Assembly (NCBI GenBank): GCA_944384475.1
Contig: CALWTN010000050.1
Span: forward strand, 1 to 33,386
Length of the DNA stretch: 33,386 nt
From: an uncultured Clostridia bacterium
Lineage (GTDB): Bacteria; Bacillota; Clostridia; Christensenellales; UBA1242
Direction: 5' to 3'
Every line of letters starts with the position of its first letter. Within the stretch, counting starts at the first letter, position 1. Shown one piece after another: positions 13,616 to 27,803 of this stretch. The notes beneath the pieces were generated by a model, which saw only the letters and a program-made list of their open reading frames with translations, was not told where the DNA came from and did not search any database. The position numbers were made by a program, and so were the translations under genes.

Positions 13616-13658
13616 CAAAAAATCGCGGTTAGCCATCCGGCGTACCCGCGTTAATTTT
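13616..13658. terminator. Possible bidirectional terminator-like hairpin downstream of the DAK2 gene
   Basis: CGCGG (13623-13627) pairs with CCGCG (13645-13649), flanked by A6 and T6 runs. The stem is short and the loop long, so this is weak. Confidence 0.35.
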
Positions 13659-13676
13659 TTGGTTGCCCACACGAGT

Positions 13677-15311
13677 TTACTCTAAACTTACCAAATAATA
13701 ATACACTGGCTGTCCGCCTGCTGCAACTGTAACTTCACATTCAGGGTATTTTTCAGCCAATTTTTGTTGCAGGCTGCAAGCATCTTCCTCTTTAATATCC
13801 TCGCCATAGAAAAGTGTGATTGTCATAATGTTGTCGTCCATCATTTTTGCAATCAAATCCTCTGTGGTTTGTGAAACAAGGTTGCCTTTTGCCAAGATTG
13901 CTTTGTCATCAAGCCCAATGATTTCGCCAGTTGTAAGGTCAAACCCATCCACGTGAGTGTCACGCACTGCATACGTCACAGAACCTGATTTAACATTTTT
14001 GATGGCATCGTTCATTGCTTCAACATTCTCTTCCACTGTTCCGTCTGGGTTAAATGCGATTGCCGCTGAAATACCCTCCGGAATGCTTCTTGTCGAGATT
14101 ACAACAAGGTTTTTGTTGGTAAGCTCATTTGCCTGTTCTGCCGCAAGTATGATGTTTTTGTTGTTTGGATAAACAAACACCGTTCTTGCCGGAACTTTGT
14201 CGGCGGCTGCGGCGATATCCGCTGCGCTCGGGTTCATCGTCTGCCCGCCAGTTATAATTTCATCAACGCTTAAATCCTTGAAAATTGCGGCAATTCCATC
14301 ACCCGGAGCAACTGCCACGATGCCAAGATTTTTGGTTTCTTCAACCGCACTGGCTTTCTTTTTAAGTTCACGATTTTGCTCACGCATGTTTTCAATTTTG
14401 ATGTTGATAAGTTCGCCAAGTTCAAGAGCATAGCCCAGCGCCCTGTTAGGTTCGTTGGAATGCACGTGCACTTTAACAAGCGACAAATCGCCAATGCAAA
14501 TTACGCTGTCGCCAAACTCCATCAAGCGCTCTCTGAGTTTGTCGATGTCTGCTTCGGTGGTCTTTTTATGCATGTGAGTGATCATATACTCCGTGCAGTA
14601 GCCAAACTCAATTTCTTCCAAGTTGTTGATGTCTGCAATCACATCGTCCACAGTCTGTGTCTGCTTTTCGTCATCAAAAATCACTTCCAGATTTTCTTCG
14701 CCCATCAAAAGTTTGTAAAAACCTGTGAAAATAACGATAATTCCACGTCCACCTGCGTCCACAACGCCCGCTTTTTTAAGCACTGGAAGCATTTCAGGCG
14801 TCTGCTTCAAAATCTCTTCGCCAGTTTCAAGCACTTTTTTAAGGAAGGTTTCAAAATTATCAATCCTCTTTGCCAAACTAACCGCATTTTCTGCCATCAC
14901 ACGAATGACGGTTAAGATTGTGCCCTCTTTTGGTTTTGTGACTGCCTTATATGCAATGTTCGCACCCTCTTGCATAGCCTTGGCAAAAGTTTTGGTGGTG
15001 ATTTCATTGTATTTTGCAGTTACCGAGCAAAAGCCCTTAAAAATCTGCGAAGTGATAACTCCGCTGTTTCCTCTTGCACCTTTAAGTGCGCCCTTAGCAA
15101 ACGCAGCGCTAAGCTCGTCCAAATTTGCGCTTATGCACTTGCCAACTTCGGCAACCGCCGATTTCATTGTTAAAAACATATTCGTCCCTGTGTCACCATC
15201 TGGCACTGGAAACACATTAAGCGAATCTACATACTTTTTATTTTGCTCTAAAAGGCTTGCACCTGCCACAATCATCTTGCGAAAGGTGACGCCGTTTATT
15301 GACTTTATCAT
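13677..15311 (-). CDS. DAK2 domain fusion protein (YloV family)
   Basis: 544 aa. The N-terminal Dak2 motif is PVPDGDTGTNM, and the C-terminal region is YloV-type. Conserved pairing with the Asp23 gene and rpmB. Confidence 0.92.
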   Translation of the reverse strand: MIKSINGVTFRKMIVAGASLLEQNKKYVDSLNVFPVPDGDTGTNMFLTMKSAVAEVGKCISANLDELSAAFAKGALKGARGNSGVITSQIFKGFCSVTAKYNEITTKTFAKAMQEGANIAYKAVTKPKEGTILTVIRVMAENAVSLAKRIDNFETFLKKVLETGEEILKQTPEMLPVLKKAGVVDAGGRGIIVIFTGFYKLLMGEENLEVIFDDEKQTQTVDDVIADINNLEEIEFGYCTEYMITHMHKKTTEADIDKLRERLMEFGDSVICIGDLSLVKVHVHSNEPNRALGYALELGELINIKIENMREQNRELKKKASAVEETKNLGIVAVAPGDGIAAIFKDLSVDEIITGGQTMNPSAADIAAAADKVPARTVFVYPNNKNIILAAEQANELTNKNLVVISTRSIPEGISAAIAFNPDGTVEENVEAMNDAIKNVKSGSVTYAVRDTHVDGFDLTTGEIIGLDDKAILAKGNLVSQTTEDLIAKMMDDNIMTITLFYGEDIKEEDACSLQQKLAEKYPECEVTVAAGGQPVYYYLVSLE

Positions 15312-15319
15312 TTTATCTC

Positions 15320-15670
15320 CTATACTCTAACGCCAACCACGTGAACATTAACCGAGTCGACAATCATTCCCGTAAAATTTTCCACGCTGTATTTAACCGA
15401 TTTTTTTAGAGACTCAGAAACTGCGCTGATAGACACACCGTATTTCATAATACAGTAAACATCCAAAAAGATTCGGTTATCTATATGGCGAACTTTAATG
15501 CCCTTTGAATAGGACTCTTTATTAAACAATTCTTTGGCGCTGTCTTTAAAGGTTTTTGACACAAGGTCTACAACACCATAACAATCAAGCACGGCAAAAC
15601 CAGCGACAACCCTGATTGCATCATCGCTGATTGAAATGTTTCCGTAATAGTTGTTAGTGTCAACTGTCAA
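15320..15670 (-). CDS. Asp23/Gls24-family envelope stress protein (YloU-like)
   Basis: ...GNISISDDAIRVVAGFAVLDCYGVVDLV... Start reassigned to TTG 15670 (AAGGGAG RBS 8 nt upstream), giving 116 aa. The track's 143-aa form has no RBS. Confidence 0.85.
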   Translation of the reverse strand: MTVDTNNYYGNISISDDAIRVVAGFAVLDCYGVVDLVSKTFKDSAKELFNKESYSKGIKVRHIDNRIFLDVYCIMKYGVSISAVSESLKKSVKYSVENFTGMIVDSVNVHVVGVRV

Positions 15671-15780
15671 AACGATTGCTCCCTTAAATTCAGTCACTTT
15701 TATCTTACTATAAAGAAAAAATTTTTTCAAGCAATTTAGCGGTTGTTTCAAAATGTTTGTTAAAATTTTTGCTATTTTTG

Positions 15781-15809
15781 TTGATTTTACTTTTATTTTA
15801 TGTTATACT
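15781..15809 (+). promoter_or_regulatory. SigmaA-type promoter of rpmB (TTGATT-N17-TATACT with TG extension)
   Basis: TTGATT is at 15781-15786 and TATACT at 15804-15809, with TG at 15801-15802. The AGGAGG RBS follows at 15832-15837. Confidence 0.6.
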
Positions 15810-15843
15810 TGCCTTGCTAAAAAGTCCTAATAGGAGGTGAATC

Positions 15844-16029
15844 ATGTCAAGAGTTTGTGAAATATGTGGTCGTGGAAAAATGACTGGCAAAAAGGTTAGC
15901 CACGCTGAAAATAAAACTAACAGAACTTTTGAACTTAACTTGCAAGAAACCACCATTGATGTTAATGGAAAACCTACAAAAGTTAAGGCTTGCACAAAAT
16001 GCATTAAAACCGCAAGAAAAGCAAAATAA
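15844..16029 (+). CDS. rpmB: 50S ribosomal protein L28 (zinc-ribbon C+ form)
   Basis: [34 protein letters not shown]...CTKCIK. Typical L28 with CxxC...CxxC. Confidence 0.96.
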
Positions 16030-16058
16030 ATTTTGCATGTTTTTTGATTGACAAATCG

Positions 16059-16078
16059 CCTCCTGCGGGAGGTTTTTT
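16059..16078 (+). terminator. Intrinsic terminator of rpmB
   Basis: CCTCC-TGCG-GGAGG (16059-16072) followed by TTTTTT (16073-16078). Confidence 0.75.
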
Positions 16079-16121
16079 GTTGCTATAAATATACGCCTTT
16101 GCTTTGTGTTTTATACCACAC

Positions 16122-16219
16122 GGGCAAGCGCCTGTCCCGTTTTTGCAAAAACGGGACAGCCTCGCTCGTTGTGCCTAGCGAGGCAACATGCGCCGCATGC
16201 GGCGCATGTGCGCTTGCCC
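16122..16219. other. GC-rich 98-nt nested-palindrome element (closed four-way junction); function unknown
   Basis: The outer stem is GGGCAAGCGC/GCGCTTGCCC. It encloses a 28-nt perfect palindrome (16132-16159), CCTCGCT-N10-AGCGAGG (16160-16183) and a 22-nt perfect palindrome (16187-16208). Only 4 junction nt are unpaired. Confidence 0.6.
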
Positions 16220-16223
16220 CCCC

Positions 16224-16322
16224 CTATTTTTCGTCCTTTTTAACAAACGGTTTTAAAAGCGGACGCATCCACTTTGGCGCTTTGATGCAAATGATTTTAA
16301 ATTGTTTTTGCTGTTTTTCCAT
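16224..16322 (-). CDS. Small ORF (32 aa) with a SpoVM-like core; candidate spoVM
   Basis: Own translation: MEKQQKQFKIICIKAPKWMRPLLKPFVKKDEK. The core IKAPKWM..LLK.F..K resembles B. subtilis SpoVM (MKFYTIKLPKFLGGIVRAMLGSFRKD, quoted from memory). It is adjacent to rpmB, as spoVM is in B. subtilis. No convincing SD. Too short for the ORF track. Confidence 0.4.
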   Translation of the reverse strand: MEKQQKQFKIICIKAPKWMRPLLKPFVKKDEK

Positions 16323-16328
16323 GCCACT

Positions 16329-16357
16329 TTTATATGCAACCGCCCCTAAAAATGTTA
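16329..16357 (-). promoter_or_regulatory. Weak sigmaE-like promoter candidate for the small ORF (TAACATT-N14-CATATAAA)
   Basis: Against the sigmaE consensus [T/G][A/C]ATA[A/T][A/T]-N14-CATACA[A/C]T it scores 6/7 and 6/8 with exact 14-nt spacing. The -10 element ends 6 nt before the ATG, which would imply a leaderless mRNA. Confidence 0.25.
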
Positions 16358-16366
16358 AAAAGCATA

Positions 16367-16395
16367 TTGACTATCAGTTATAAATATTATATACT
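16367..16395 (+). promoter_or_regulatory. Near-consensus sigmaA-type promoter of the two-gene OB-fold operon (TTGACT-N17-TATACT)
   Basis: TTGACT is at 16367-16372 and TATACT at 16390-16395, with a 17-nt spacer. The GGGAGA RBS at 16405-16410 and ATG 16418 follow. Confidence 0.6.
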
Positions 16396-16417
16396 TTTAT
16401 GTATGGGAGAAAATAAA

Positions 16418-17686
16418 ATGGAAAACATCAAACACCCAATTTTGGGACACGAATTTAAAAATGAATGCAATCAGTTGATACTCTGCGGCAGAGCATTGAC
16501 GGTTCCATTGAAAATGCAAAGTAAAGAGGGCGATGTAAGCAATTTTGGAATGCTTTTTGAGGACGGAAAATCAGGAGTTGTGCTTCCTCTTGACCTTTCT
16601 TCGCTGGATAGCTACGATTCGTTTATTCAACCACTCGACAAATTGATGCTGTTTGGACATATTGGCAATAAGCAAGGCGAACAAACCTTTGTTGTTGAAG
16701 AGATAAAAAATGCAAACAGAAACCCTGAAGTTTACAACATGGGCTTTGTTTTTGGAACGCTGTATGACGCAAAGAAATTTGTTAAAATAGACGGCCAGAA
16801 ATTTTTAAAAATTGTCATAACTGCTAAAGACCACTTCACAGGAACAGAAGAGAAGGTTACTGTCTACACACAAAATGAAAAACAAATCAGCTATTTTACT
16901 TGCAACGGCATAAAGCGTGGTACCCCAATAGCGGCGCAATATTTTTTAGCCTATAATGCAGCAGAGCAATCTTTTTCGTTTTTGCCAATTTTAATGAGTT
17001 TTGACACCTTTGCATGCTCACCTAATTCAGTTTTTCACACTTACACCCCTCTTCCAGAACAAGAGAGGTTTGATCCTAAGGCAAAGTTCCCAAAAGGAGG
17101 CAACTATGTTACAGCCGTTGGTACAGTGAAAAGCCTGACAGAACAAATAGGTGAAAACAACTATCAAGCAGAACTTTTATTAAAACGAGGCAAAACCTCT
17201 TTTGAGCTGCCATTATTGATGAATCAAAAAACAGCACAGGTGTTTGACGAACACAATAATGTTGGCGACACGACGATTGTGTTTGGCTCGCTTGGTCAAA
17301 ACGTGTTTGGCTTTAACAGCATAAAAATAAACGGCTTCACCAACCTTCAAAAAAGGTTTGGCGATGATTATTCATCAAGCTTTGGGCGTGTGATATTTGA
17401 ACTGGAAGACGTTCCACAACCAGCCCCAAAAGGCTTTTGCAAACATTCAACAAAAGCACCTAGTATAAATAAAGATAAGTTTAAAATCAAAATAAACGGC
17501 ACAACATTTTCTTCAAAAGCTGGAATAGATGTTGCAGAGCAATTTATGCAAGCAAGAAATATGCCACACGCTCCGTCTGGTTATAAGGCGCTCTATACTT
17601 TTGTGCCTGACGAATTTGAAGAGTTGGGCATAACGCAAGCGTTGCCAAAAATAGTTGCAACAGTGCCAATGCCACTGTCAAAATAA
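16418..17686 (+). CDS. Hypothetical 422-aa protein; three tandem SSB-like OB-fold-type modules plus a C-terminal region (pattern-based assignment)
   Basis: Start set at ATG 16418 (MENIKHP..., GGGAGA RBS 7 nt upstream), not the track's 16334. The repeated pattern is N-x-h-x-h-x-G ... h-h-LP-h-x-h ... GD-x-h-x-h-x-GSL, e.g. NQLILCGRALTVP/VVLPLDLS and NYVTAVGTVKS/FELPLLMN/VGDTTIVFGSL. Confidence 0.75.
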   Translation: MENIKHPILGHEFKNECNQLILCGRALTVPLKMQSKEGDVSNFGMLFEDGKSGVVLPLDLSSLDSYDSFIQPLDKLMLFGHIGNKQGEQTFVVEEIKNANRNPEVYNMGFVFGTLYDAKKFVKIDGQKFLKIVITAKDHFTGTEEKVTVYTQNEKQISYFTCNGIKRGTPIAAQYFLAYNAAEQSFSFLPILMSFDTFACSPNSVFHTYTPLPEQERFDPKAKFPKGGNYVTAVGTVKSLTEQIGENNYQAELLLKRGKTSFELPLLMNQKTAQVFDEHNNVGDTTIVFGSLGQNVFGFNSIKINGFTNLQKRFGDDYSSSFGRVIFELEDVPQPAPKGFCKHSTKAPSINKDKFKIKINGTTFSSKAGIDVAEQFMQARNMPHAPSGYKALYTFVPDEFEELGITQALPKIVATVPMPLSK

Positions 17687-17706
17687 CAAAATTTTTAGGA
17701 GAAAGA

Positions 17707-18378
17707 ATGGATAAATTCGGTTTTAAAAGGCAATCAAACAAAGTGCGAATATGCGGAGATCTCGTAGACCACCCAACTTTTTTGTTCTACTCACCAAATT
17801 ATGATTTAAATTATTATTTGTTTCATGTTAACATAGCAAATCCCAATGCTCATCCAAATTTAATACCAGTCGTAGTCAGCGAAACCCAAAAAGCACTTGT
17901 GGAAAGCAAAAATATTGGCGACAATGTCACCGTGTATGGAAGCCTCGCCTCCGAAAGGTTTAATGAGGATAAATATTCAACTTTTGTAGAGTATGAAAAA
18001 ATTTTTAACAACACATTATACAATCCTTTTGGCAGTCTTTGTATAATCAGGGGCATTTTAAAATCTCCGCTAATGCCTGTTACTTTGCGCAATGGAAAGT
18101 TGGTAAACACATTAATTTTAAGTTATGATAAATATCGCCTTCCTGTAAAGGTATCTATATCTCAAAACACCTCGCAAAATTATGATACAATAGATTATGG
18201 CGACAGCGTTGCATGCCGAACCACTCTATACAGTTCTTCAAGTCAATACCTGGCTGTACATGCCAATGCAAAAATAGTTGTTCCGCAAAGCAAATTGGAA
18301 GAAAACCCTCGTTTAAAAGAACGATTTAATGATTTGGATGCTTCAAACTACGCACTATGTCAAATGTTAAAAAGATAA
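17707..18378 (+). CDS. Hypothetical 223-aa protein; two tandem SSB-like OB-fold-type modules (pattern-based assignment)
   Basis: AGGAGA RBS; ATG lies 20 nt after the upstream stop. Module 1 is NKVRICGDLVDHP...NLIPVVVSE...IGDNVTVYGSL. Module 2 is SLCIIRGILKSPL...YRLPVKVSI...YGDSVACRTTL. Confidence 0.75.
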   Translation: MDKFGFKRQSNKVRICGDLVDHPTFLFYSPNYDLNYYLFHVNIANPNAHPNLIPVVVSETQKALVESKNIGDNVTVYGSLASERFNEDKYSTFVEYEKIFNNTLYNPFGSLCIIRGILKSPLMPVTLRNGKLVNTLILSYDKYRLPVKVSISQNTSQNYDTIDYGDSVACRTTLYSSSSQYLAVHANAKIVVPQSKLEENPRLKERFNDLDASNYALCQMLKR

Positions 18379-18401
18379 AACCGAGCATGCGCTCGGTTTT
18401 T
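18377..18401. terminator. Bidirectional intrinsic terminator shared by the OB-fold operon and spoIVA
   Basis: AAAA-CCGAGC-ATGC-GCTCGG-TTTTT, lying between the convergent stops at 18378 and 18403. Confidence 0.8.
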
Positions 18402-18402
18402 G

Positions 18403-19881
18403 TTATAACAGAATGCAAATAATTCCGCCCCTGCCTTCGTTGACTATCCTGCCAAGAGTTTTTCGCATCTTTCTTTGCGCGTCCACTGGCATCATGATAA
18501 TCTTTGAATTTATATTGTCGCCAATAAGCTCTGACAGGCTTTTGCCAAGCAAGTTGGTTTGCCAAATTGCCTGCGGGCTTTCTTGAATTTGACTTAAAAG
18601 GTCGCTTACAACTTCGCGACTTTGCTCTTCCGTGCCAACAAGCGGAGTGACTTCGGTGTTGACATCCACACGCAAAATGTGCAAACTTGGTGCGCTGGCT
18701 TTAATTTTAACGCCAAACTTACTGCCCTGTCTGATGACTTCTGGCTCTTCAAGTTCAAACTCATCTTGTCGTGGCGCTACAATGCCATAGCCGGTTTCTT
18801 TAACCTGTTCGAGAGCGGTTTTAAGTTTGTCGTATTCAAGTTTAGCGATGGCAAGTTCTTTGATATAGCCGATGAGTTCAAAATCATCATTGATTTGATA
18901 GCCGCACTCCTTTGAAAGCACCTTGTAAAACAAGCCTTCTTTTGGAATCACGCCAAATTTTACTGTGCCGTCACCCATTTCGATGTTTGAAAATGTGATT
19001 GGCTCAAACGCTTCGCTTTCGGTGAAAATCAGTTTGCCTTTATCCACATCGCTGAGTTTTTCCATGCCTGATGCAAAGTTTTTAACTTCGCTGGCAATCT
19101 CTTGAATGATGTCGTCTTCAAACGAGAGCGCTTGCAACCACTTTGGCATTTTAAGTTTGATGGATGTGACAGGAAATTCAAACAAAAGCTTTTCAAAAAC
19201 CTTGTCGATGTCGGCTTCTTTAAGCTCCAAAGCATTTAGCGCAACAACTGGCACGCCATATTTTTCTTCCAGCGAAGAGGCAAGCTTTTTTGCGTCATTT
19301 GCGGCAGGCGCTTTGCAATTTAGTGCAATTACAAATGGTTTGCCGCTGTCTTTCATCTCGCTCACAACCCTTTCTTCCGCTTCAACATAGTTGGCGCGTG
19401 GGATGTCAGTAACAGAGCCGTCAGTTGTCACAACCACGCCGACAGTTGAATGCTCTCTCATAACTTTTTTTGTGCCAAGTTCGGCGGCTTCTTCAAACGG
19501 CATCTCTTCGCTAGACCAAGGCGTTTTAACCTTTCTTGGAGCGTTGTTTTCAATATGCCCCATCGCCCCAGAAACAAGATAGCCCACACAATCGATAAGC
19601 CTAACCCTCATGTCAACCTTATCATTGACGCAAATTTTAACCGCCTCGTTTGGCACAAATCTTGGCTGAGTTGTCATGATTGTTTTGCCGTCTGCTGATT
19701 GAGGAAGTTCATCAATCGCTCTTTCTTTTGAATACTTGCCCGTTATGTTTGGAAGCACAAGTTTTTTCATAAATTCGGTGATGAATGTTGATTTTCCAAC
19801 TCTAACTGGGCCAACAACGCCGACATAAATTTCGCCGTTTGTGCGAGATTTGATGTCGTCATATATTTGGTATTTTTCCAT
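18403..19881 (-). CDS. spoIVA: Stage IV sporulation protein A (coat basement-layer ATPase)
   Basis: MEKYQIYDDIKSRTNGEIYVGVVGPVRVGKSTFI... (Walker A). 492 aa from ATG 19881 with a GGAGG RBS 5 nt upstream. The track's 515-aa extension is rejected. Confidence 0.95.
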   Translation of the reverse strand: MEKYQIYDDIKSRTNGEIYVGVVGPVRVGKSTFITEFMKKLVLPNITGKYSKERAIDELPQSADGKTIMTTQPRFVPNEAVKICVNDKVDMRVRLIDCVGYLVSGAMGHIENNAPRKVKTPWSSEEMPFEEAAELGTKKVMREHSTVGVVVTTDGSVTDIPRANYVEAEERVVSEMKDSGKPFVIALNCKAPAANDAKKLASSLEEKYGVPVVALNALELKEADIDKVFEKLLFEFPVTSIKLKMPKWLQALSFEDDIIQEIASEVKNFASGMEKLSDVDKGKLIFTESEAFEPITFSNIEMGDGTVKFGVIPKEGLFYKVLSKECGYQINDDFELIGYIKELAIAKLEYDKLKTALEQVKETGYGIVAPRQDEFELEEPEVIRQGSKFGVKIKASAPSLHILRVDVNTEVTPLVGTEEQSREVVSDLLSQIQESPQAIWQTNLLGKSLSELIGDNINSKIIMMPVDAQRKMRKTLGRIVNEGRGGIICILL

Positions 19882-25378: not shown

Positions 25379-26155
25379 TTATTCCAAAATTTTATTTTTA
25401 ATCTCTTTTAAAGCATTCTTTTCAAGACGCGAAACTTGCGCTTGGCTTATGCCAACCTCCTGACTGACTTCCATTTGATTTTTGCCTTCATAGTATCTTA
25501 AAATCAAAATCTCACGCTCTCGTGGCGACAGTTTTTTGATTGCATCTTTGATGGCTATTTTTTCATACAAACCTTCTTCACTGTCTTTAAGGTCGGTGAT
25601 TTGGTCTTTAAGTTCTATGGCGTCACTGCCATCGTTGTAAATAGGCTCTGAAAGCGAAACGGTTTCGCTGATGGCGTCAAGCGCAAAATTGATGGTTTTT
25701 GCTGGCACATTTAAATACTTTGCAATGTCTTCAATCGTAGGCTCTGTCACGCTGTCTTTTGCCAGCACCTCTTTGGCTTGCAAAGATTTGTAGGCGATGT
25801 CTCTAAGCGAACGTGAAACTCGCACCGAATTGTTATCACGCAAAAATCTTCTAATCTCGCCGATAATCATCGGCACGGCATAGGTTGAAAACCGAACATT
25901 TAAACTTTCGTCAAAATTGTCAATCGCTTTCATAAGCCCAACGCAGCCCACCTGAAACATATCGTCAGCCTTGTCACTTCTGCCGCCAAAGCGTTGCACC
26001 ACACTCAGCACCAGCCTTAAATTTGCCACCACAAAGGCGTCACGAGCAAACTCATCGCCCTTTTTTACTTTTTTCATAAGCGCCATTATGTCGTCATTTG
26101 AAAGTTTTGGCAAAAGCGAAGTGTTGACTCCTGCGATAATAACTTTGTTTGACAT
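25379..26155 (-). CDS. sigG: Sporulation sigma factor SigG
   Basis: NKVIIAGVNTSLLPKL...NLRLVLSVVQRF...FQVGCVGLMKAIDNFD...FSTYAVPMIIGEIRRFLRDN. Position directly after sigE. Confidence 0.93.
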   Translation of the reverse strand: MSNKVIIAGVNTSLLPKLSNDDIMALMKKVKKGDEFARDAFVVANLRLVLSVVQRFGGRSDKADDMFQVGCVGLMKAIDNFDESLNVRFSTYAVPMIIGEIRRFLRDNNSVRVSRSLRDIAYKSLQAKEVLAKDSVTEPTIEDIAKYLNVPAKTINFALDAISETVSLSEPIYNDGSDAIELKDQITDLKDSEEGLYEKIAIKDAIKKLSPREREILILRYYEGKNQMEVSQEVGISQAQVSRLEKNALKEIKNKILE

Positions 26156-26168
26156 AGCAAAAGCCTCC

Positions 26169-26188
26169 TAGGAAAATAATTTTTCCTA
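26169..26188 (-). promoter_or_regulatory. 8-bp hairpin next to the sigG Shine-Dalgarno sequence
   Basis: Minus strand reads TAGGAAAA-ATTA-TTTTCCTA, followed immediately by GGAGG (26168-26164). Confidence 0.5.
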
Positions 26189-26206
26189 ATAAGCCAAGGA
26201 TTATGC
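26178..26206 (-). promoter_or_regulatory. SigmaF-type forespore promoter of sigG (GCATA-N15-GGAAAAATT)
   Basis: Every defined position fits the B. subtilis sigmaF consensus GCATR-N15-GGHRARHTX as I recall it. It lies in the sigE-sigG intergenic region. Confidence 0.55.
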
Positions 26207-26260
26207 AAACACCAAATAATTTGACAAAAATAGTGCAAAAATTGCAATTTTTTTAAAATT

Positions 26261-26986
26261 TTATAGTATTTTTGAAAGTTCTTTCTTCATTTTAACCAAA
26301 ATCTTTTTTTCTATGCGTGAAATATAACTTTGGCTGATGCCAAGTTTATCTGCAACTTCCTTTTGGGTGAGTTCATCTTTGCCTTCCAACCCAAAGCGCA
26401 AAATCATAATCTCCTGCTCACGCCGCTCCAACCTGTTTAGTATCTGCCAGATGGCGTCACGCTCTGCCGAGTGATCAAGCCCAGCGCTAACCTCATCGCT
26501 TTCGCTTGCCATGATGTCGGCAAGCACAAGTTCGTTGCCCTCGCCATCGTCACAAAGCGGCTTGTCCAAAGATATCTCGCCTTTGATTTTTGAAAGCTTT
26601 CTAAGTTGCATCAAAAGTTCGTTTTCAATGCACCGTGAAGCATAGGTGGCAAGTTTGATGTTTTTGTCGCCCCTAAAAGTTTTAACAGCCTTGATAAGCC
26701 CCACCGAGCCGATTGAAATAAGGTCTTCAAAATCTATGCCTGTGTTTTCAAATTTTTTTGCGATGTAAACCACCAGCCGCAGGTTGTGTTCCACCAGCTT
26801 TTCTCTGGCAAAGTCGCTGCCGTTCTCTGCCTGCTGAACCAGCATGCGCTCTTCTTCTGGATCGAGCGGAAGCGGCAAAGCCTCATTGCCGCAAATATAG
26901 CAAACAATCCCCTTGGCATCAAGCAAATTGTGCTTCCAGAACAGTTTGTATAAAAGATTTTTAAGATAAAAGAATAGTTTCCTCAT
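26261..26986 (-). CDS. sigE: Sporulation sigma factor SigE (pro-sigmaE)
   Basis: The pro-sequence MRKLFFYLKNLLYKLFWK... is followed by YICGNEALPLPLDPEEE and sigma regions 2 to 4. ATG 26986 has an AGGAGAG RBS 10 nt after the spoIIGA stop. Confidence 0.93.
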   Translation of the reverse strand: MRKLFFYLKNLLYKLFWKHNLLDAKGIVCYICGNEALPLPLDPEEERMLVQQAENGSDFAREKLVEHNLRLVVYIAKKFENTGIDFEDLISIGSVGLIKAVKTFRGDKNIKLATYASRCIENELLMQLRKLSKIKGEISLDKPLCDDGEGNELVLADIMASESDEVSAGLDHSAERDAIWQILNRLERREQEIMILRFGLEGKDELTQKEVADKLGISQSYISRIEKKILVKMKKELSKIL

Positions 26987-26996
26987 AGCTCTCCTT

Positions 26997-27803
26997 TCAA
27001 GCCAGCTCGCTGTGAATAAGCACTCCTGCATTTAGAGTTTTTGAAAAGTTGGATAAACTCAGCCCAAGCAAAGCATGATCCAGCACTCTTGCCCTGCCTT
27101 TTTCGGTTATCGTAAGTTTGTCAGCCATGAACACCAACATCTTCCCATCGCCGACAGCCGAACCTACATTGACAAAATGCCCATACGGCAGTTTTTTTGC
27201 TTTTTCTTTTTTGAGTAAGTAAAAAAGATAATCCTCGCCCACAATTTTGCTGAAAACTTCCTTTGATATCAACACGATTGGTGCTGATGTAACAGGGTCA
27301 TACAGCACGTTAGCGCTGTCAATATAGCCCACTTCTTCAACAATTTTATCTTTGCAAGCAATTTGCACCGAGCATGTAAAAGAAGAGATTGCTCGCCTTT
27401 TCGCCAAACGTTTGAGAAAACTTTTAACGCAAATGTAAGTGACAAGACAAACTACGCAAACAATCAGCGTGCTAAGCGAGCCGAACCACATGGTCACAAG
27501 CGCATTTGCTCCGCCAAAAACAAAGGTTAAAAAAATAAATCCGAAACCATAAAAGGCAAATTCTTTAAATGATTTGATAGGAAAACTAATGCTAACCATT
27601 ATGATTGCCACAAGCAGCATAACGATGATTTTTATATACACCGGAAAATTAAATATTGGCAAAAACAAAGCAATCACACTGCCTAAAAAATCACTAACAA
27701 TCCATAATTTAGCTTTAACTTTAAACATCGCACCGCAGCAAGAAATAATAAAATAATTGATGATTAAATTTTGCAGCAAAACGTATTCAATAACTACTTC
27801 CAT
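26997..27803 (-). CDS. spoIIGA: Sigma-E processing peptidase SpoIIGA
   Basis: Five N-terminal TM helices plus a C-terminal aspartic protease region (GYIDSANVLYDPVTSAPIVL, compare the DTGN motif). Position upstream of sigE. Confidence 0.9.
   Translation of the reverse strand: MEVVIEYVLLQNLIINYFIISCCGAMFKVKAKLWIVSDFLGSVIALFLPIFNFPVYIKIIVMLLVAIIMVSISFPIKSFKEFAFYGFGFIFLTFVFGGANALVTMWFGSLSTLIVCVVCLVTYICVKSFLKRLAKRRAISSFTCSVQIACKDKIVEEVGYIDSANVLYDPVTSAPIVLISKEVFSKIVGEDYLFYLLKKEKAKKLPYGHFVNVGSAVGDGKMLVFMADKLTITEKGRARVLDHALLGLSLSNFSKTLNAGVLIHSELA

Follow-up and report, generated by a model that had tools for sequence, protein, structure and literature searches.

Between a small SpoVM-like open reading frame (ORF) and spoIVA, a contig from an uncultured Clostridia bacterium (CALWTN010000050.1, assembly GCA_944384475.1) carries two adjacent plus-strand genes, here called A and B. 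[quoted passage not shown] A can be read, from sequence comparisons, as a paralogue of B in which two B-like units are fused. The family is tiny and, in the loci recovered, fixed to one chromosomal site, where alleles have been exchanged between lineages at a constant address and behind a constant promoter. The pair probably serves as an accessory binder of single-stranded DNA (ssDNA).

Predicted folds of the B and A products

Modelling of B by AlphaFold2 (AF2) from a two-sequence alignment gave a predicted local distance difference test score (pLDDT) of 28. A confident model (pLDDT 83.9, predicted template modelling score 0.83) was obtained only after divergent relatives from an exhaustive search (see below) had been added, in an alignment of eight sequences. 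The model consists of two complete beta1-beta5 OB units followed by C-terminal helices. OB1 comprises strands at residues 11-19, 24-29, 34-42 and 52-58, a helix at 62-66 and strands at 73-86 and 89-101; OB2 comprises strands at 110-118, 123-126, 132-139 and 147-152, a helix at 153-159 and strands at 167-176 and 183-193. The C-terminal helices span residues 194-199, 201-207 and 214-222. An original prediction, made from the letters of the window, had described a three-part motif recurring through both products. In the B model its elements fall on beta1, beta3 and beta4 of both OB folds, indicating that the pattern is not random and reflects real structure.

In Foldseek, the model is matched best by two-OB SSBs from Deinococcus radiodurans, Thermus aquaticus and T. 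thermophilus (E = 1e-10 to 4e-9), which superpose on B over its full length (about 200-215 columns, template modelling score (TM) 0.61-0.68, root-mean-square deviation 4.3-6.0 Å; top entries 3udg, 1se8 and 2ihf). These proteins (DrSSB, 1se8/3udg; TaqSSB, 2ihe/2ihf/2fxq; TthSSB, 2cwa) are the closest full-length structures to B, at 14-18% identity, so that the comparison with Deinococcus-Thermus SSBs made in the original prediction proved apt. One of their chains equals an SSB dimer, as in B, and the full-length superposition implies that the two OB folds are packed against each other in the same manner. They are, however, essential replicative proteins with a flexible acidic tail, whereas B has neither attribute and is far too variable. 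[quoted passage not shown] In all, there were 149 PDB matches to B at E <= 0.001, with SSB and PriB predominating, and among the viral models of BFVD the best matches are two-OB phage SSB-like proteins of 205-222 residues (TM 0.62-0.71). B is thus modelled as two SSB-type OB folds in a single chain, packed like an SSB dimer.

Sequence searches point in the same direction through the relatives of B. Pfam, NCBIfam, PHROGs and PADLOC gave no above-threshold match to A or B, neither of which the original prediction could assign to a named family. Two leads below threshold emerged for window B: NF004476/PRK05813, "single-stranded DNA-binding protein" (15.1 bits, E = 0.012, residues 9-85 of B against positions 7-80 of 219 in the profile), and DUF3127 (E = 0.023). 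The Pfam SSB family (PF00436, gathering threshold 26 bits) is matched by five of seven family members. P0005 reaches 27.3 bits with two matched stretches, one in each half, while P0004 and P0006-P0009 score 17-23 bits. The match lies in the N-terminal half of P0004 (11-90), P0006 (11-79) and P0008 (11-96), and in the C-terminal half of P0005 (110-193) and P0009 (110-194). NF004476, the sole NCBIfam model matched by the B family, is hit by three of the seven (best E = 1.9e-5). When a family profile was compared with the PDB, the top seven matches were all bacterial SSBs (7d8j, 5yyu and 6bhw among them; E = 0.01-0.1), with alignments spanning the complete OB domain; the Staphylococcus aureus and Bacillus subtilis SSBs align across the B OB1 span, and 4gs3 is again among the matches. 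The SSB-like OB modules of the original prediction are therefore upheld for B by the AF2 model, Foldseek, the Pfam matches of its relatives and the profile, and for A by homology to B only (see below).

Modules of the B family align end to end with canonical SSB/SsbB (PF00436), sharing the N-x-V-x-L-x-G...P signature of beta1 and the G-x-V-x-V-x-G signature of beta4. Canonical SSBs, however, have a single OB fold whereas B has two modules, no acidic tip and non-aromatic residues at the W54/F60 sites of OB1, and its relatives score near the cut-off. The C-termini of B (...NYALCQMLKR) and A (...VPMPLSK) bear no D-D-D-I-P-F-type SSB acidic tip. At residues 194-222 of B, an acidic/aromatic motif is semi-conserved in most divergent types (ERFNDLDASNY, EEFNNPDSDN, EEFYNPESEN, QKFYDLDSSHY); this helical motif could be a partner-binding element in place of the tip.

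The nearest named family is PRK05813, the TtePriB/EndoTT proteins (NF004476; Tte0829, CD3235, CAC2382), whose 4gs3 structure appears in both the sequence and the fold matches. Like B, these are proteins of Clostridia of about 216-223 residues with two SSB-type OB folds and no acidic tip. B falls far short of the 171-bit cut-off at 15 bits, and its family differs in being hypervariable, in its genomic location and in its confinement to one narrow clade. In a by-eye alignment of the beta4 motif, EndoTT residues G170/R172/G177, reported to be essential for ssDNA cleavage, correspond to G165/S167/T172 of window B; P0005 and P0006 show G-D-K...G at this motif in the same kind of alignment.

Gene A has a single known homologue lineage, at 66-67% identity, and its relationship to B was established by pairwise and profile comparisons. 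Whole A against whole B gives a Smith-Waterman z of 7.7, reached by none of 300 shuffles. The clearest local similarity is that of A module 3 to B OB1 (BLASTP, 30% identity over 60 residues; hhalign P = 0.0005; Smith-Waterman z = 6.9, reached by none of 200 shuffles). By hhalign, each half of A aligns with nearly all of B (A 8-204 on B 1-199, P = 0.005; A 220-414 on B 2-196, P = 0.003), either half outscoring 40 of 40 column-shuffled controls, with modules 1 and 2 colinear with B modules 1 and 2. A B-family hidden Markov model scores 12.5 and 18.1 bits on A and its homologue, against a maximum of 5.6 among 500 shuffles, and BLASTP aligns P0003 12-221 to P0009 5-216. Taken singly, module 1 (A 1-105) matches the B1 profile with P = 0.007, colinearly, and module 2 (A 100-215) matches the B2 profile with P = 0.03, also colinearly within the alignment of the N-terminal half. 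Taken alone, the region of residues ~321-414 gives a non-significant P of 0.24; it aligns to B OB2 as a low-confidence continuation of the colinear match and has no Pfam or PDB match.

These comparisons favor the reading of A as two fused B-like units. Of modules 1-3, the third is the best supported, followed by the first and then the second, and residues ~321-414 possibly form a fourth, degenerate module. The original count of three modules in A thus stands, although the list may have been incomplete. A would then approximate a covalent B dimer with three to four OB folds per chain; bacterial SSBs are not known to have more than one or two OB folds, and A may be a bacterial SSB-like protein that exceeds this number. 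Pfam searches with four fragments each of A and its homologue gave nothing above cut-off; an 18.7-bit, sub-cut-off match to Bacillus_HBL was treated as spurious. PDB sequence searches with A or with the A alignment returned chance-level matches only, and reading A by eye revealed no zinc-ribbon motif.

Neither the B family, nor a fused form with three to four OB folds, nor hypervariable behavior at a fixed address is described in the family libraries or the literature searched. The fold and the probable activity are familiar ones. The locus adds to the SSB superfamily an unannotated and very divergent branch that current family libraries miss.

Allele turnover at a fixed chromosomal site

Relatives of A and B are few. 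Among 5.8 billion proteins, a word-indexed search retrieved a single relative of B (97%) and a single one of A (66%). An exhaustive phmmer search of 1.84 billion representative proteins with B yielded six at E <= 0.001: P0001 (97% identity), P0004 (42%) and P0005-P0008 (24-27%), the last five being 226-234 residues long and aligned over nearly their full length. Scans of viral contigs with A and B gave no relatives. The loci recovered number 11 (the window and L001-L010), nine of them distinct; the comparison loci are all metagenome contigs or metagenome-assembled genomes. In every one, the gene order is fakA, asp23, rpmB, SpoVM-like ORF, cassette, spoIVA, plsY, der, so that the address between the SpoVM-like ORF and spoIVA, whose conservation the original prediction had left to be checked, is constant.

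The content of the cassette is not. A accompanies a type-I B in the window, L001 and L007; type-I B stands alone in L002 and L003; other single B types occupy L004, L005, L006 and L009/L010; and L008 carries two tandem B-family genes. A is therefore present in three of the 11 loci (two of the nine distinct ones) and B occurs alone in six of the nine. The tandem genes of L008 (5919-7284), at the same site, encode proteins of 227 and 223 residues that are 25% identical and are separated by a 10-nt gap. The same locus has an additional minus-strand gene, encoding 336 residues, between asp23 and rpmB (L008 4168-5178), which belongs to no Pfam family.

The promoter is conserved. TTGACT-N17-TATACT, ahead of A, is the top sigma-70-type match of the region, at 10 of 12 positions; its TTGAC core and TG-extended -10 element are kept in eight of eight aligned loci, regardless of the B allele downstream. 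The near-consensus promoter originally proposed is thus borne out. Across loci it takes the form TTGAC-N17-TG-n-TAnAAT, of sigma-A type. Recognition by sigma-E or sigma-G was rejected for the promoter of the two genes, as the conserved bases fit sigma-A.

The B types are 20-42% identical to each other, versus 83-99% for the SpoIVA proteins of the same genomes. L005 offers the clearest example. Beginning exactly at the B stop codon and hairpin, 8 kb of its sequence (L005 3484-11483) match the window at 96.8% identity, with SpoIVA 99% and Der 100% identical; its sole cassette gene is 27% identical to B, A is absent, and upstream of the cassette (13616-16372) identity is 84%. We ascribe the mosaic boundary at the 3' end of the cassette to recombination, an assembly join being less likely. 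An assembly chimera, although conceivable in metagenome contigs, was considered improbable because the breakpoints fall at the divergent gene and not at shared sequence.

Type-I B genes are 96-99% identical between loci, whether A is present or absent. Synonymous divergence (dS) between the window and L001-L003 is 0.09-0.13 for B, compared with 0.86-0.89 for spoIVA and 1.16-1.18 for fakA. Against L001, sliding identity climbs from ~72% in A to 98% near 17760, remains at 97-99% over most of B, is 93% at the B 3' end and drops on entering spoIVA, to ~90% by 18560; the spoIVA flank lies at ~85%. A dS of about 0.1 amid flanks of 0.9-1.2, together with this identity tract, indicates that B was recently transferred or converted between lineages. 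A did not share this event: in the window-L001 pair its dS is 1.22 (non-synonymous divergence, dN, 0.21; dN/dS 0.17) while that of B is 0.12, which argues for separate histories of A and B in the same two genomes. L001 and L002 are sisters (SpoIVA 99% identical) with B genes 99% identical though L002 has no A. The loss corresponds to a precise deletion between two 9-bp GGAGAAAAA repeats, which are the ribosome-binding sites (RBSs) of A and B (L001 590-606 and 1886-1900 versus L002 2975-2998).

Within types, B shows dN/dS ratios of 0.10-0.21 (0.10-0.13 in type I) and A a ratio of 0.17, indicating that the genes are functional and under purifying selection. The GC content at third codon positions (GC3) is 0.31 in B and 0.36 in A, against 0.41-0.50 in the flanking protein genes, rpmB excepted. 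Altogether, a fold of intracellular DNA-binding proteins shows the evolutionary pattern of a surface antigen or specificity gene, with a fixed address and promoter, divergent alleles, transfer, duplication, fusion and loss.

Candidate roles of the cassette

The reading of the pair as an accessory ssDNA binder draws on the basic isoelectric points (pI) of the family (8.2-9.2 in all eight members examined), the basic OB2 of window B (pI 9.4), aromatic residues retained in beta2, beta4 and loop L45, and structural neighbors that all bind ssDNA. EndoTT, which binds ssDNA in vitro (PMC2887958), provides a precedent. Under this reading, B would bind single-stranded nucleic acid through the canonical OB face and would pair into a four-OB particle, which A would mimic within one chain; A and B would be read from the single conserved sigma-70-type promoter. 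Since it ends in helices instead of an acidic SSB tip, B would act as an accessory binder, and neither it nor A, which also has no such tip, as a replicative SSB hub. Recombination in the conserved flanks would swap cassette alleles; duplication (L008), fusion (giving A) and loss of A (L002 and L003) occur as well.

Several observations weigh against this reading. Window B reaches no family threshold (15.1 bits on NF004476, for an equivalog cut-off of 171), and neither it nor A has a Pfam SSB match at E <= 10. In a by-eye alignment, Leu and Ser of OB1 stand where E. coli has W54 and F60, two of the four classic stacking sites; the contact residues of B are presumptive. The invariant residues (N11, G17, P23, P54, Y77, G78 and G116) are mostly fold-determining, hence no conserved ligand surface is evident, and the extreme divergence of the surface could reflect a protein rather than a DNA ligand. 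Modules 2 and 4 of A, finally, have weak statistics.

It appears rather unlikely that B is instead a mother-cell sporulation factor, corresponding in this clade to the two-OB SSB-like proteins that Clostridia induce in sporulation, and acting on mother-cell DNA or at the forespore, in coat assembly or engulfment. The constant position of the gene between the SpoVM-like ORF and spoIVA in 11 of 11 loci speaks for such a role, as do the putative sporulation sigma-factor genes of the window, recognized through their L005 homologues. A further argument is that CD3235, a PRK05813 member (PMC2887958), belongs to the C. difficile sigma-E regulon, with a sigE-mutant/wild-type ratio of 0.03 and an assigned sigma-E promoter (PMC3789822). 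On the other hand, the conserved promoter of the cassette is of sigma-A type and the residues of a sigma-E -35 element (CATATT) vary across loci; B is only remotely related to PRK05813 (15 bits); and core sporulation proteins are not usually 27% identical in genomes whose SpoIVA is 99% identical. To judge from locus-tag distance, CD3235 and CAC2382 are presumably not adjacent to spoIVA either. The case for sporulation is thus circumstantial; should the link of this family to the sigma-E-controlled CD3235 and to the PRK05813 proteins hold, it would help to explain the presence of a second, two-OB SSB in spore-forming Clostridia.

We find it similarly improbable that the cassette is driven by conflict, with A and B directed against invading ssDNA or against phage or plasmid replication proteins in defense, exclusion or as a decoy, and with negative frequency-dependent selection keeping divergent alleles moving between species. 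The pattern of turnover itself is what recommends this idea, since such a pattern usually signals genetic conflict. Besides the contrast between B types and SpoIVA, which in L005 sets a 27% allele beside a 99% identical SpoIVA, it includes the recent transfer of B, tandem duplication in L008, the fusion represented by A, presence/absence variation and a GC3 below that of the flanks. In addition, phages encode structurally similar two-OB SSBs, and phage SSBs are reported to trigger several defense systems. Set against these points, PADLOC-DB v2 holds no match to A or B at E <= 10, no nuclease, TIR or pore-former effector domain was found and no defense genes were seen nearby, viral contigs gave no relatives and PHROGs only marginal matches, the within-type dN/dS ratios denote purifying selection with no positive selection shown, and the sample amounts to 11 loci. 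If true, the conflict explanation would point to a new role for SSB paralogues. A more elaborate version, which we hold to be unlikely, would make the SpoVM-like/spoIVA site a dedicated hotspot for a hitherto unrecognized class of interchangeable tandem-OB "SSB-mimic" cassettes (single, duplicated or fused four-OB), in which ancient alleles of 20-40% identity are traded between species through conflict over phage or plasmid ssDNA replication, the product being a sensor, decoy or exclusion factor whose timing might serve to shield the cell during sporulation.

Re-use of the OB scaffold for another ligand (SpoIVA or the SpoVM-like protein as partner, or a glycan), with loss of DNA binding, is distinctly unlikely. 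OB folds are known in general to bind proteins and sugars (PMC2887958), OB1 of window B is acidic (pI 5.8), and the structural character of the conserved residues and the absence, by eye, of two classic stacking aromatics in OB1 would fit a change of ligand. Yet the overall pI is basic in eight of eight family members, the best structural neighbors are all ssDNA binders, and the sequence has no evident signal peptide or membrane segment.

The RPA-like hetero-oligomer of A and B advanced in the original prediction, with five to six OB folds over two subunits, is very improbable as an obligate complex: co-transcription across a 20-nt gap, the paralogy of the two OB proteins, the two adjacent family genes of L008 and the complex that two neighboring OB-fold proteins of ICESt3, OrfL and OrfM, form (PMC12614216) lend it some color, but A is missing from most loci, B is unchanged (99% identical to that of L001) in L002 after deletion of A between the GGAGAAAAA repeats, and the discordant dS values record separate histories. 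RPA, the multi-OB ssDNA-binding complex of eukaryotes and archaea, resembles the present system in having several OB folds per chain (three to four in A) and OB-fold genes side by side; it differs in that the Foldseek TM is only 0.26-0.30, the sequence relation is limited to the OB fold, and A and B do not obligately co-occur.

Other candidates were discarded. A replicative SSB was rejected for B on account of its variability and the lack of an acidic tip, and PriB proper because neither architecture nor locus fits. The HelP, OrfL/OrfM (ICESt3) and Orf22/Orf23 (Tn916) proteins of integrative and conjugative elements share with A and B the arrangement of adjacent, divergent SSB-like OB genes without acidic tails; they are, however, single-OB proteins encoded within conjugative elements beside a relaxase, whereas A and B are flanked by core genes with no mobile-element genes, and a HelP-like pair was rejected on this ground. 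A prophage remnant was dismissed in view of the core-gene flanks and of an insertion point identical in all loci.

Locus layout and neighboring elements

Table 1. Features of the A/B cassette and its immediate surroundings in the window
Feature	Position	Strand	Evidence
SpoVM-like 32-aa ORF, divergent from A/B	16224-16322	-	Conserved core motif
Sigma-70-type promoter for A and B	16367-16395	+	10/12 match, kept in eight loci
Gene A, 422 aa, read as accessory paralogue of two fused B-like units	16418-17686	+	ORF, RBS, profile comparison
A module 1 (aa ~18-95), putative OB fold, counterpart of B OB1	16469-16702	+	hhalign
A module 2 (aa ~107-195), putative OB fold, counterpart of B OB2	16736-17002	+	hhalign, weakest of the three
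A module 3 (aa ~229-300), probable OB fold homologous to B OB1	17102-17317	+	Smith-Waterman, BLASTP, hhalign
C-terminal part of A (aa ~321-414), candidate fourth OB module, degenerate	17378-17659	+	Low-confidence alignment
Gene B, 223 aa, predicted two-OB-fold SSB-like protein	17707-18378	+	AF2, Foldseek
B OB fold 1 (aa 11-101), predicted	17737-18009	+	AF2, family profile, Pfam SSB matches of relatives
B OB fold 2 (aa 110-193), predicted, pI 9.4	18034-18285	+	AF2, Pfam SSB matches of relatives
B C-terminal helices (aa 194-222), predicted	18286-18372	+	AF2, family alignment
Recent recombination tract	17760-18560		Sliding identity vs L001, dS
Hairpin terminator between B and spoIVA	18377-18400		Terminator scan, A/T runs

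The gene calls agree with those proposed initially: two ORFs separated by a 20-nt gap, each preceded by a GGAG-type RBS. A longer A frame opens at 16334; the promoter falls within it, making 16418, with its GGGAG RBS, the credible start. B and spoIVA are convergent and separated by a hairpin of 10 pairs with A/T runs on both flanks, which vindicates the shared terminator of the original prediction. The two genes do lie on the plus strand, but the backbone that they interrupt is not purely minus-strand as had been described, since rpmB (15844-16029) is also on the plus strand. Similarly, spoIVA is the downstream neighbor as stated, whereas rpmB is not the immediate upstream one.

Between rpmB and the cassette lies the minus-strand ORF of 32 residues (MEKQQKQFKIICIKAPKWMRPLLKPFVKKDEK), divergent from A and B and their direct upstream neighbor. 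Its core, KIICIKAPKWMRPxLKPF(V/I)KK, is conserved in eight loci; we take it to be SpoVM-like by motif resemblance alone, a Pfam search with the peptide giving no match. In B. subtilis, SpoVM adjoins rpmB. Given this resemblance, the cassette would be flanked by both genes of the coat basement layer.

A GC-rich four-way junction (16122-16219) lies immediately past the stop codon of the SpoVM-like ORF. It consists of a 10-bp outer stem around three perfect hairpins, and folding of either strand gives a free energy of about -72 to -75 kcal/mol. The corresponding elements of L001-L005 fold to the same topology, even though hairpins 2 and 3 are of wholly different sequence and the outer stem is altered. 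At the same position in L009, another sequence-divergent, GC-rich multi-hairpin element was recognized by eye, without folding. At gathering thresholds, no Rfam family matched anywhere in the window, nor was there a credible match near the palindromic element. The latter may represent a structured 3' untranslated region or a terminator, or else a novel element of RNA or DNA. The association once suggested between this element and the A/B pair finds no support: the element is present in loci that have no A, and L006 has a B gene and no element.

Some kilobases downstream, on the minus strand (25379-27803), the L005 homologues of the window genes, in a region 96.8% identical between the two, encode proteins of 258 and 241 residues bearing sigma-70 r2/r4 domains. 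This suggests a cluster of sigE/sigG-type sporulation sigma factors in the window, consistent with a spore-forming host.

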